Shown here in pieces: positions 49,350 to 56,707 of a DNA stretch of 64,000 bases (the stretch's first letter is position 1; each line of letters opens with the position of its first letter). The position numbers and the translations under genes were made by a program. Source of the stretch: a virus (lineage: Duplodnaviria; Caudoviricetes); the IMG/VR virus record IMGVR_UViG_2791354756_000002, positions 288-64,287 of that record; one strand, given 5' to 3'. The notes under the pieces were generated by a model. That model saw only the letters and a program-made list of their open reading frames with translations, had not been told where the DNA came from and did no database searches.

Positions 49350-49847
49350 TTAATGCGCAATAATCGTCTGCTTCATAAGCGTCCCCGGTATCCATACGAG
49401 ATGCACCGGTACAGTAATTTCATCTATGATGTCCAATATGCGTGCGTGAATCCTTTTCAAATGTTCCGCGTTCGTTCTGTACACCCCCTTCAGCTGGTAC
49501 TCTACCGTCCTGCTGTCCATACACACCTCGACGCTCGTCACGTCATCGTGGTGATCCCTCACATAGTTTCGCGCCCATATCAGCGCTGATTCCAATGTCT
49601 TTGCTTCTGCCAGGTTGTTCGTGGGACGCTCATGCGCACCAGCCACAACGGTCATCTTTTCCATATGCACCAGCGGCCTGCCCTCCTCTTTCAGGCGCAA
49701 GTGCTTCTCTTCACTCTCCTGTCCATGCCAGCCCCATATGGTCCCGCACGGGACCAGATACGCGGCAAAGCTTCCGCTAGCCGCCGCCTGCTTCCTGCCG
49801 TTAAACGTGCAGGCTCCGTCCGAATACATCAGCAATTTGTGGGGCAT
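49350..49847 (-). CDS. rnhA: Ribonuclease H
   Basis: YSDGAC, TNNLAE, MDSR.V..Q, VWIP; start MPHKL at 49847. Confidence 0.85.
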   Translation of the reverse strand: MPHKLLMYSDGACTFNGRKQAAASGSFAAYLVPCGTIWGWHGQESEEKHLRLKEEGRPLVHMEKMTVVAGAHERPTNNLAEAKTLESALIWARNYVRDHHDDVTSVEVCMDSRTVEYQLKGVYRTNAEHLKRIHARILDIIDEITVPVHLVWIPGTLMKQTIIAH

Positions 49848-52060
49848 ACCAAGAAGTCTCCAGGAAACACCGTCTGCGAATCGCCGTGCTTGGCCCATAC
49901 CGTATTGCGTACCGAATCCTTCGAGACAACCTCGAAAGTGTTGTCTGCGAATACAAATCGGGCGCCTTGCGTCAGGGTAGACAGTGCGACTGTCTCTGTT
50001 GCGATCACGGGCTCAGGCGCCGGCTCTGATTCTACAGGCTCAAGTGGTACCAGCTGCGATATGTCCTCCATGTTGGTCAGGCTTACCAACTCCTCTGTAT
50101 TACTGACAAATGTCTTGAACTCTGGAGAAGAATGTCCCTGTCTCAGTGACAGGCGTTTGAGAGAAACATGGTCGAAGGTTGCATCCAAATCATGCATATC
50201 GTAGCGCCATCCAGTCGTGACAACCGGACCGCTGCCAATATCCGGGATACTGCACATCTTGTCCCACAGCTCAGACATACCCTGCTTGAATACCATAGGA
50301 CGGAACTCGGATATCCTGTGGAACTTATGTCCTGTGGCATCCTTGAACGCATCAAAGCTCTTTATGCTTGCCTTGTACTCATGGTGAGCTTTGGAATCGT
50401 TACTTTTATCATCACTGAAGTACCCCGCCACATACTTCAGTGATATGACATATCCATCGTAACTGCACAGATCACCGTTGTCCTTCTTTACGTAAAGAAC
50501 CTGAACAAGATTTCCGTTACTGGCGGAATTTCGTGTATGAATACTATCAATTATACCTTGGTATCTTGGATTAATATCTATCTTACCAACAAGAAGATAC
50601 GCAGTGATACAGTGATCATATACTATACTGTATATTGATTCATCGGAAACCCCGAGACCTGGCAAAAATGGTTCTCCAAGAAGCAGCATTGTAGCGAACT
50701 CCGGAACATTCCTGGCAAAGGTAAACAGTGGCAAGTGGCTGAAATACTTTTTAGTGTCAAACTCTGCCGTTGTTGTGTAATGAAGATCCTCCCTGCTGGA
50801 TACAAGATCTGCGTCCTCCGTATCCAGATTTATCACCAACTGATGTGTTATCGGATTTCCCCCGAGAACAGATGCAACAGATCTGACTACAAGACATTCT
50901 TCACCGCGAATATTGAGAGCTATGTACGCATTATCACTCCTGTTACTGGAGCTTACATATCCAGGTATCCTGTTCAGTATGGGAGAGTTACCCCAATTCC
51001 ATCTATTCTCCAACCAATTGTCGAAAACCATGCGGTAGCGATCCAGCTCTATCCCATTCACTATGGCCTTCGCTTGGGTTTCCGTTTTTGTTTCCGGCAG
51101 AAATTCCCTGCTGGAATTTACATACATCCAGTTAAAGTTCCTGTCCTTGCGGTCATCGCGGTAGAACTCCGTGATGTACCACGCAGGCTCGTGACTGCCT
51201 CCGCCGGTAAGCCACCAGTGGATAAACGCTCCCACATAGGAGGCCACGTTGGCGCCGGTGTAGGTAATAGCCCTGGCCGTGCATGGCTCCTGCACACCGT
51301 TCTCATCATCAAAGTAGGCTGCCCTGCGGTACATACCCTCAACAGCCGCCACAAGAGACCTCGCGCCCTCCACATTGCTTGTCTGTAGCTGACGCATCTT
51401 CTTCGGAGTATACACAAAGCAGTTCCAGTCACCCAACGCCATACGCAGGTCAATGTACAGCTGCACCTGTCGTGCGTCATCGCCAAGATCAACAATCTCG
51501 TCAATCATGCGCTTGCGGAACTCCATGTTGTCCACAGCGCTTATCACTATGTCAGGCACGTACCCGAGCAGGCTGCAAATGTGCCCAAGGTCGTTTACAC
51601 GCTGTGGAAACACCTGAAGGTCAACACCACGAAACGCCAGCGCCTGTCGGCGTATGGCCTCAACCTTTGGCATACCAACATCTATCAAATTATGGGCCTG
51701 TGGGCCTATGTTCACAGTATCGACAACATCGTCATCAAATATGGCAATGTCCCTGAATCCCATACCAACAAGCACACGCCATACCCAGTTGCCAAGCCCT
51801 CCGGCGCCAACAAGCGCTATGGTAGTGTTCTGCACCATATTGGCAGGCAATACTGTGGAAAACCTCTGACTCCCCTCCTCCTGTATCTGCGCAAGCCTGG
51901 CCTCGCCCATACCCAGTATGTGCTCGCGCATGTCGTCCACAAAGCGCTCGTACTTTTCCTCAAACATATGTACCTCGCCCTGCTGCGCGGCTTCAGGCGC
52001 ACTACCGCTACTGGTAAGCTCGTTGGCGAACTGTTCGAGATCGAAATCATCTCCGTCCAT
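49829..52060 (-). CDS. ThiF/E1-like ubiquitin-activating enzyme with long C-terminal extension
   Basis: VGAGGLG, DDDVVDTVNIGPQ, SAVDN...R, candidate catalytic Cys QEPCTA. Confidence 0.88.
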   Translation of the reverse strand: MDGDDFDLEQFANELTSSGSAPEAAQQGEVHMFEEKYERFVDDMREHILGMGEARLAQIQEEGSQRFSTVLPANMVQNTTIALVGAGGLGNWVWRVLVGMGFRDIAIFDDDVVDTVNIGPQAHNLIDVGMPKVEAIRRQALAFRGVDLQVFPQRVNDLGHICSLLGYVPDIVISAVDNMEFRKRMIDEIVDLGDDARQVQLYIDLRMALGDWNCFVYTPKKMRQLQTSNVEGARSLVAAVEGMYRRAAYFDDENGVQEPCTARAITYTGANVASYVGAFIHWWLTGGGSHEPAWYITEFYRDDRKDRNFNWMYVNSSREFLPETKTETQAKAIVNGIELDRYRMVFDNWLENRWNWGNSPILNRIPGYVSSSNRSDNAYIALNIRGEECLVVRSVASVLGGNPITHQLVINLDTEDADLVSSREDLHYTTTAEFDTKKYFSHLPLFTFARNVPEFATMLLLGEPFLPGLGVSDESIYSIVYDHCITAYLLVGKIDINPRYQGIIDSIHTRNSASNGNLVQVLYVKKDNGDLCSYDGYVISLKYVAGYFSDDKSNDSKAHHEYKASIKSFDAFKDATGHKFHRISEFRPMVFKQGMSELWDKMCSIPDIGSGPVVTTGWRYDMHDLDATFDHVSLKRLSLRQGHSSPEFKTFVSNTEELVSLTNMEDISQLVPLEPVESEPAPEPVIATETVALSTLTQGARFVFADNTFEVVSKDSVRNTVWAKHGDSQTVFPGDFLVCPTNC

Positions 52061-52217
52061 ATTTTCCTTTTCTCCTTTTATATTTTCTTTTTCGCTAACG
52101 GCAAGTTAGCAATCAATTTTATGTCAAAAAATCATGCTTTTCTTGCCGTTAGCACCCCCTGTTTTTGCCGCAATGTCAAAAACGTGGCAAAAATAGTTAA
52201 TTCGATTACCAAAAACG

Positions 52218-56374: not shown

Positions 56375-56626
56375 CTAGCAGCCGGAATTTCCTGACTTAT
56401 AAGACTTCGGCTGGCAGGTGATGTCGCAGTCCTCGGTCAGCTCGGTGCTGAGATCATCGACAACATCACCGTCGAGAAGAATGGTGGCCTTGCCGGGGGT
56501 AACACCCACGGCTTCGAGCACGTCGGCAATGGTGACACCCTTGCGCTGAAGAGCCTGGATGGGTTCGGCGGTGGCGGAGGGGGTAACGTTGACGGTGATG
56601 TAGTCGGCGGCGTTCATGTAAGACAT
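56375..56626 (-). CDS. Ubiquitin-like beta-grasp protein
   Basis: SD AAAGGAG; ITVNV...GVTIADVLEAVG...ILLDG...LTEDCDITCQPKSYKSG-NSGC. Confidence 0.8.
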   Translation of the reverse strand: MSYMNAADYITVNVTPSATAEPIQALQRKGVTIADVLEAVGVTPGKATILLDGDVVDDLSTELTEDCDITCQPKSYKSGNSGC

Positions 56627-56692
56627 AGTGGTACTCCTTTAAGAGAAATAATTTAGGGGGTAATTATCGAGGACATAAATCCCCAATAATTT

Positions 56693-56707
56693 CATATCCT
56701 TATAACA
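56693..56707 (-). promoter_or_regulatory. Phage promoter motif heading the Ubl operon
   Basis: CATATCCTTATAACAAAAAAGGGGGTCAAAAATTTAAT on +. Confidence 0.75.

Follow-up and report, generated by a model that had tools for sequence, protein, structure and literature searches.

Ubiquitin-like protein (Ubl) conjugation in bacteria has been described either as a host weapon against phages, in the Bil and type II CBASS systems, or as part of stress operons (Bub). Bil operons (BilABCD, types I and II) encode a Ubl, an E2, a JAB deubiquitinase and an E1, and conjugate the Ubl to phage tail proteins. BilC trims BilA (Chambers et al.), the BilA of E. aridi ends in Gly97-Ala98, and in BilD an inactive N-terminal domain precedes an active one into which a Cys domain is inserted. 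Bub operons carry a DUF6527 serine peptidase and Ubl-E2 or E2-E1 fusions. Iyer et al. (2006) reported E1-E2-JAB-Ubl operons from bacteria and bacterial mobile elements alone; the Ubl-JAB pairs that they described in phages were all in clusters for tail assembly. Here we describe a cassette of five consecutive phage genes encoding a Ubl, a conserved partner protein (hereafter X), an E2-like protein, a JAB peptidase and an E1. It lies in a 64,000-nucleotide stretch, referred to as the window, of the IMG/VR virus record IMGVR_UViG_2791354756_000002. The window covers nearly the whole of this 64,287-nucleotide record, which has an estimated completeness of 36%; contigs near-identical to the record reach 157-161 kb. 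We consider the cassette to be a phage-owned Ubl conjugation pathway, with a probability of roughly 60%.

A phage cassette compared with known Ubl operons

The cassette had been noticed in a reading of the DNA letters alone (the original prediction), which proposed a phage-encoded Ubl conjugation operon behind a phage promoter motif and with an internal terminator after the Ubl gene. The record is indeed a virus contig, all five minus-strand open reading frames are present where they had been placed, and the motifs quoted for them were found. The features are as follows, in order of transcription.

56697-56709, minus strand: promoter motif TTTGTTATAAGGA, just upstream of the Ubl gene
56375-56626, minus strand: Ubl, 83 residues, a ThiS/MoaD/SAMP-like beta-grasp protein (Pfam, PDB profile search, C-terminal motif)
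56348-56332 and 56294-56271, minus strand: two terminator-like hairpins in the gap between the Ubl gene and X
54840-56243, minus strand: X, conserved partner of 467 residues (position in the cassette, alignment)
53593-54837, minus strand: E2-like protein, 411-414 residues (invariant residues, AlphaFold2 models, structure searches)
52218-53579, minus strand: JAB/JAMM metallopeptidase, 453 residues (JAMM motif; Pfam Prok-JAB below cutoff)
49829-52060, minus strand: ThiF-type E1, 743 residues (Pfam ThiF, NCBIfam ThiF, PDB)

The closest described systems are the Bil operons, with which the cassette shares four predicted activities in the same order and a Ubl whose Gly is followed by a tail that a JAB peptidase would have to remove. 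It differs from them in being encoded by a phage rather than by the host, and in the additional gene that separates Ubl and E2. In the E2-like protein, the Cys is preceded by HPH and the domain is flanked by an N-terminal helix and by a helical bundle at the C-terminus; the E1 has a single N-terminal ThiF domain with a short region before the Cys, followed by around 450 residues, in place of the inactive/active pair of BilD. The cassette therefore falls outside Bil: no Bil protein model matches, a BilD-type E1 is absent, and there is an extra gene. More generally, none of its proteins matched the Bil, Bub or Cap3 models of PADLOC and NCBIfam above noise. Neither is it a Bub operon, since Pfam DUF6527 matched neither X nor any other cassette protein and the genes are all separate. 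Type II CBASS fails as well, with E1 and E2-like protein encoded separately and no nucleotidyltransferase match in the cassette proteins scanned; in PADLOC, the E1 matched only the CBASS Cap2-type 'E1-E2' models, and weakly (best 1e-7). The PRTRC systems of plasmids and integrative elements resemble the cassette in residing on mobile DNA. The E1 matched the PRTRC ThiF model with 3.7e-11 (42.8 bits, against a cutoff of 144.75) and the JAB matched PRTRC protein A with 0.005 (16.4 bits, against a cutoff of 101.8), no ParB-type match was present in the cassette proteins scanned, and no other PRTRC protein was matched.

The Ubl and its putative processing peptidase

As a single sequence, the first protein of the cassette matched the Pfam families SAMP2 (0.005) and ThiS (0.04), and ThiS was matched by four of eight members of its family, at best with 8.7e-7. 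A profile of the family found SAMP2 (0.002) and ThiS (0.004) in PDB, where structures of SAMP2, ThiS and MoaD spanned values of 0.002-0.007. The window Ubl ends in KSYKSGNSGC. Within the conserved K-x-Y/L-x-S-G, S78 and G79 do not vary. After the Gly, the tail depends on the lineage (C, NSGC, NYGC, VASI, NAAA or TARLAAA), so that relatives end, for example, in KSYKSG-C, KKYSSG-VASI or KNYTSG-TARLAAA. Because the Ser-Gly is invariant while the tails differ in every lineage, the pattern points to a precursor trimmed to a C-terminal Gly79. The original prediction had named G79 or G82 as the cleavage site; the ends of the relatives decide for G79, which is the conserved Gly, and against G82.

The gap between the Ubl gene and X contains the two hairpins listed above, the second of which has a 10-bp stem and a run of seven T. 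A hairpin stands at the matching place in two distant relatives (loci L011 and L013), and the predicted internal terminator thus has a position conserved in three lineages, so that reduced read-through after the Ubl gene looks like a feature that has been kept.

The candidate peptidase for the trimming step is the JAB protein, which carries HIHSHHSMSAMWSGTDD. Its JAMM residues (E88, H152-x-H154, S164 and D167, in the pattern Glu...His-x-His...Ser-x-x-Asp) are all invariant (alignment A3), and its match to Pfam Prok-JAB (1e-3, 19.5 bits) lies below the cutoff of 25 bits. The JAB core occupies residues 72-171, approximately, of 453. The protein also has an extension that is conserved and specific to the family, and its C-terminal half is variable. 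The cassette type of the window is rare, its JAB forming 12 protein clusters among 5.8 billion.

The E1

The last gene of the cassette encodes a protein in which Pfam ThiF (PF00899) covers residues 76-192 of 743, with 71.9 bits against a cutoff of 28.1 (E 5.8e-20). The NCBIfam ThiF model matched with 5e-15, and in PDB the protein matched MccB, Uba4, Atg7 and MoeB. Its adenylation domain (around residues 60-290) contains the nucleotide-binding Gly motif GAGGLGN at 85-91, followed by D109, R137, D177 and C260. The Gly motif, the catalytic Asp and Arg positions and C260 are invariant in all lineages aligned, crAss001 and FpV4 included. C260, which follows the crossover region, is by its conservation the candidate for the Cys that would carry the Ubl. 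Around 450 variable residues come after the adenylation domain. The E1, the JAB and the E2-like protein had each been predicted to bear large extra domains, and in all three the core indeed fills only part of the protein. The assignments of a beta-grasp Ubl, of a JAB with intact metal ligands and of an E1 with a candidate catalytic Cys likewise withstood these comparisons.

The E1 itself ends in a Cys in some lineages. Its last two residues are NC in the window (49829-49834), and among the three clade-B loci compared they are YC in L004 and L011, the terminal Cys being absent from L006. In lineages whose E1 ends in Cys, the Ubl precursor is Cys-terminal as well.

An E2-like protein with a probable UBC-like fold

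The third gene, whose probable start codon is the ATG at 54828 (411 residues), had been called E2-like for its motifs HPHV...ICTG (H172-P173-H174 and C189, spaced HPH-x14-C). Fifteen relatives came from an exhaustive HMMER search and further ones from metagenome loci. Across 21 sequences at 17-30% identity, Y113, H172, P173, H174, C189 and W218 are invariant, which includes the candidate Cys and the His-Pro-Asn-type motif that precedes it. Sequence databases gave little else: the protein had no match in Pfam or PHROGs and only one chance-level row in PADLOC (0.0021, no qualifying stretch), and both single-sequence and profile searches of PDB sequences returned coiled-coil noise only. A Prok-E2_D lead from a protein atlas (26% of one cluster, 0.78) was weak and was not used.

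AlphaFold2 models (predicted local distance difference test, pLDDT, of 75 for the whole protein and 69 for the domain alone) place an N-terminal helix before an alpha/beta domain (around residues 58-236) and a C-terminal helical bundle (239-371). Searches with the whole model were swamped by the helical bundle, and the domain was therefore folded alone. When the domain model was compared exhaustively with 48,161 chains, the first 50 matches were almost all UBC, UEV or RWD proteins, among them UbcH10 (Z 4.9, 114 residues), UBE2F (4.8), UbcH5b (4.7) and Ube2S (4.6). A second search, its first 50 matches again dominated by such proteins, gave Ube2e2 with Z 5.3 over 112 residues at 4.1 A. These alignments cover 107-116 residues of E2 chains of approximately 150, at 12-19% identity. 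The order of elements in the model (helix, four strands, His-Pro-x loop, Cys, helix) matches that of a UBC enzyme, and a UBC-like fold is probable on these models.

Compared with eukaryotic E2s, the model thus shares the first helix, the four-strand sheet, the His-Pro-x loop, the invariant Cys and the second helix. In contrast, its motif is HPH and not HPN and stands 15 residues before the Cys rather than around 8, a disordered insert of around 30 residues is present, and the last two UBC helices are replaced by the large bundle. If correctly assigned, the protein adds a very divergent new family of E2-like proteins with a eukaryote-like His-Pro-x motif. The assignment as an E2 rests on the motif, the gene context and low-scoring fold matches. 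Of the original claim, the invariant HPH...C and the nearly uniform UBC, UEV and RWD character of the fold matches stand on one side, and the low Z scores and the lack of a matching E2 sequence model, both weighed below, on the other.

A conserved partner protein of 467 residues

X was correctly predicted as a 467-residue protein; its start is corrected from an upstream TTG to the ATG at 56243, as in its relatives. It is always found between the Ubl and E2-like genes in the cassette group of the window, and no relatives were detected outside the cassette. No match to X was obtained in Pfam, PHROGs, PADLOC or NCBIfam, and searches of PDB with the single sequence and with a profile gave coiled-coil noise only. 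In the alignment of the family (A6), no catalytic residue is invariant. Most probably, X would serve as an adaptor for choosing the target, or would itself be modified. The earlier idea of an E3-like adaptor or substrate is fitted both by the lack of an invariant catalytic residue and by the conserved membership of the cassette.

Several other identities were considered for X. A Cys-His enzyme, either a second peptidase or a HECT-like E3, was rejected, as the PATxEC motif and H436 of close relatives are lost in distant members. An inactive half of an E1 and an inactive, UEV-like E2 were also discarded, hhalign comparisons of X with the E1 and E2-like profiles being negative. A VapE lead from the protein atlas (0.84) was weak and was not used.

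Conservation among phages and position in the replication block

The five genes recur in the same order in several phage lineages that share only 17-30% identity. A profile scan added 17 further metagenome loci, several of them from the human gut, on contigs of up to 109 kb, and those that reach upstream of the E1 gene show an unchanged cassette order. Neighbouring genes are also kept. In two lineages that are only around 25-40% identical, ThyX lies on the opposite strand, separated by a gap of 1-2 kb from the cassette, which is followed downstream by an RNase HI-like gene, a small gene, NrdD and NrdG. Because these neighbours are kept between two divergent lineages, the arrangement argues for long vertical inheritance of the cassette in phages over recent capture from a host. 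We regard the cassette as a long-standing syntenic part of the replication and nucleotide-metabolism block of these phages.

The original prediction had called for a survey of phages versus hosts, and the cassette was found on the phage side. Pattern scans with E1 and JAB profiles in one genome per species of 185,579 prokaryote species, which detect only fairly close relatives, returned no copy. Several searches of phage sequences found nothing, namely megablast with the region as query in 50,697 phage records, IMG/VR scans with the E1 protein and the E1 profile, and tblastn of the JAB against phages.

A four-gene form in crAss-like and Flavobacterium phages

A link to crAss-like phages was found only through the E1, and then through profiles. 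With the E1 as query, tblastn retrieved 74 phage records, every one of them from crAss-like Bacteroides phages, from uncultured relatives or from phages of Flavobacterium psychrophilum; where carriers are in culture, their hosts belong to the Bacteroidota. A four-gene set without X (Ubl, E2-like protein, JAB and E1) is present next to the primase gene in crAss001, in other crAss-like phages and in Flavobacterium phage FpV4, where its annotation has so far been limited to "thiamine biosynthesis protein (ThiF)" and "metalloprotease domain protein". In crAss001, the set is gp79-gp78-gp77-gp76, located between the primase and uracil-DNA glycosylase genes. The protein gp79 has a beta-grasp-like start and KKIKSG ahead of a long extension, YMHSHV...PCTG is present in gp78 and the JAMM motif in gp77, and gp76 is the ThiF protein. 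FpV4 (gp53-gp50) and four other crAss-like genomes have the crAss001 layout.

The two forms have homologous E1s with the same invariant Cys and homologous JABs, the latter being related to the gp77-like proteins by hhalign with a probability of 96% (E 5e-9, 211 columns). Both have their cassettes in the replication block and a Ubl with a comparable motif, K-x-x-K/S-S-G in crAss-like phages and FpV4. The middle protein has YMHSH...C-x-G (HSH...C) in crAss-like phages and FpV4, compared with YGHPH...C-x-G in the family of the window. For the E2-like profiles, the best hhalign stretch is the His-x-His...Cys itself, with weak support (P 0.002). The best matches of the E2-like model in BFVD were uncharacterised crAss-like phage proteins of 373-435 residues, with probabilities of 0.97-0.99; the best E overall, 4e-4, belonged to an unnamed entry. 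No X homologue was found in crAss-like cassettes by profile comparison. The forms also differ in the E1, which is short (228-383 residues) in crAss-like phages and FpV4 and has 743 residues in the window, and in the Ubl, which there carries a C-terminal extension of around 130-220 residues after the Gly, whereas the window tail is short. Identity between the two cassettes is only around 25%.

The Ubl extension has features of its own in crAss001 gp79 (L030:2298-2975) and in loci L031-L035, namely the conserved motif S-R-x-E-A-Y...G-L-Q...F-G-K-N-F-T, a charged low-complexity stretch and a conserved end. By analogy, it recalls ubiquitin, which is made as a fusion and then cut free.

The four-gene form had previously gone unrecognised in crAss001, other crAss-like phages and FpV4. 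No publication describing the cassette in phages was found, within an incomplete coverage of the literature; searches for crAss-like phages together with ThiF, ubiquitin or JAB gave nothing relevant, and the papers on zeta and epsilon crAss phages leave the cassette genes unmentioned. A phage-owned cascade in the replication module, if real, would mean that bacterial viruses also use Ubl chemistry, and would be the viral equivalent of what Bil and CBASS conjugation are in the host. It would also give a function to the "thiamine biosynthesis" and "metalloprotease" genes of very abundant human gut viruses. Both crAss001, with Bacteroides intestinalis as host, and FpV4, with Flavobacterium psychrophilum as host, are in laboratory culture, so that direct tests are possible.

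Proposed pathway and competing explanations

The following scheme, including each of its chemical steps, the target and the role of X, is inferred from gene content, motifs, fold similarity, synteny and distribution. The Ubl would be made as a precursor and in excess, because the terminator hairpins after its gene should cut read-through into the rest of the cassette. The JAB peptidase would remove the short tail after Gly79, and the E1 would then adenylate the exposed Gly and take the Ubl onto Cys260. From there, the Ubl would pass to Cys189 beside the HPH of the UBC-like protein and finally to an amine of the target, with X perhaps selecting that target. The JAB may also undo the modification. 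The surroundings of the cassette, genes for replication and nucleotide metabolism, make an intracellular target with a role in replication or host takeover more probable than a component of the virion. The central claim of the original prediction, Ubl conjugation encoded by the phage, gains support from the survival of all component assignments. A broader statement would be that Bacteroidota phages, crAss-like ones included, own a complete E1-E2-Ubl-deubiquitinase cascade in their replication module that tags host or phage proteins, with X as specificity factor in the lineage of the window; for this we see evenly balanced odds.

Several results weigh against a conjugation pathway. The best matches of the E1 are sulfur-carrier and MccB-type adenylases, and the Ubl ends in a single Gly, not in Gly-Gly. 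The E2 sequence models (UQ_con and Prok-E2_A to E) matched none of 16 members of the E2-like family and four further ones, NCBIfam E2 models did not match it either, Foldseek searches of PDB with the E2-like models gave no significant match, the VIA Z for the domain never exceeded 5.3, and a pLDDT of 69-75 is middling. The cassette has no recognisable E3. Finally, sets of a Ubl, an E1 and a JAB that work without conjugation exist, for example CysO/Mec+ and QbsE/QbsD.

The main rival is a sulfur-carrier pathway, which we judge unlikely. Here, the Ubl would be adenylated and converted to a thiocarboxylate, whose sulfur would end up in a nucleotide, a tRNA or a cofactor; the JAB would only trim, and the HPH...C protein would be a sulfur-relay or acceptor enzyme and not an E2. 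The scores of the Ubl and the E1, which are best against ThiS/SAMP2 and ThiF/MoeB/Uba4, respectively, are what such a pathway would show, and the neighbours belong to nucleotide metabolism (ThyX, NrdD and NrdG here; uracil-DNA glycosylase and ribonucleotide reductase in crAss-like phages). In several lineages, moreover, the Ubl ends in Gly-Cys and so resembles the CysO-Cys adduct, which is cleaved by a JAMM peptidase. However, a Cys after the Gly is not kept across lineages, the conserved cassette lacks a rhodanese, a cysteine desulfurase and a PP-loop acceptor, and it has a third enzyme with a UBC-like model and an HPN-like motif before an invariant Cys.

Another possibility is counter-defence, in which the enzymes act on the Ubl immunity of the host (type II CBASS Cap2/Cap3 or Bil), the JAB stripping host conjugates or the phage Ubl and E2-like protein serving as competitors or decoys. 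The targeting of phages by host Ubl conjugation systems, the Bacteroidota hosts of the cultured carriers and the restriction of the PADLOC matches of the E1 to Cap2-type models are all consistent with it. We nevertheless give it little weight, as no protein matches Bil, Bub or Cap3 models above noise and a full E1-E2-Ubl set exceeds what a deconjugase needs. Anti-defence genes usually lie in variable phage regions, whereas the cassette stays at one position within the replication block even among phages that have diverged widely.

A Bil-like defence carried as a passenger, by which the phage would exclude competing phages, appears improbable. Its gene order is that of Bil apart from X between the Ubl and E2-like genes, and tail proteins of phages are what Bil modifies. 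Against this stand the absence of a copy from the pattern scans of prokaryote genomes, the absence of any PADLOC defence model beyond the weak E1 matches, the neighbours inherited over a deep divergence and an E1 architecture unlike that of BilD. Least credible is an MccB/PaaA-type reaction, in which the E1 would adenylate the C-terminus of a small protein to yield a modified peptide or nucleotide-peptide with no transfer to protein. Among PDB sequences, the E1 does match MccB best (4e-6), and PaaA appears as well, but the similarity is confined to residues 68-151, the Rossmann region that these enzymes have in common. The substrate, moreover, would be a folded beta-grasp protein of 80 residues ending in a trimmed Gly, and no export or immunity genes are present. 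The phage-owned conjugation pathway is the reading that we prefer.

Neighbouring features of the window

One further gene adjoins the cassette.

49350-49898, minus strand: RNase HI-like gene (NCBIfam RNase HI, 2e-8)

Its start overlaps the stop of the E1 gene, and it is always linked to the cassette, following the E1 in most loci and lying between the E2-like gene and the JAB in L013 (5845-6312). It may be a sixth partner or a neighbouring replication gene that lies outside the pathway.

The window also encodes a fused RNA polymerase subunit of 1469 residues (33396-37805, plus strand) that is 34% identical over its full length to that of Salmonella phage Arash (181 kb) and 32% identical to genes of Vibrio phages D181, D148 and D69. 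By the sequence of this protein, the phage of the window is placed near the group of Arash and the Vibrio phages and not in Crassvirales. No Salmonella or Vibrio record is among the tblastn matches of the E1, which gave no sign of the cassette there.

The predicted promoter motif ahead of the cassette was found as the copy of TTTGTTATAAGGA listed above. The motif occurs 11 times in the window, where 1.5 copies are expected, and always on the minus strand (11 of 11). The copies span positions 3353-56709, three of them clustering at 3353-3490. It is likely a phage-specific promoter and could serve in mapping how the phage divides its genes into transcription units.

In both lineages examined, a gene-poor stretch of 1-1.9 kb lies between the cassette promoter and the divergent ThyX gene (window 56710-58500; L007:7730-9610; L011:8698-9701). 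It is a possible origin of replication or control region, and in the window it contains an 817-bp mirror-symmetric element.

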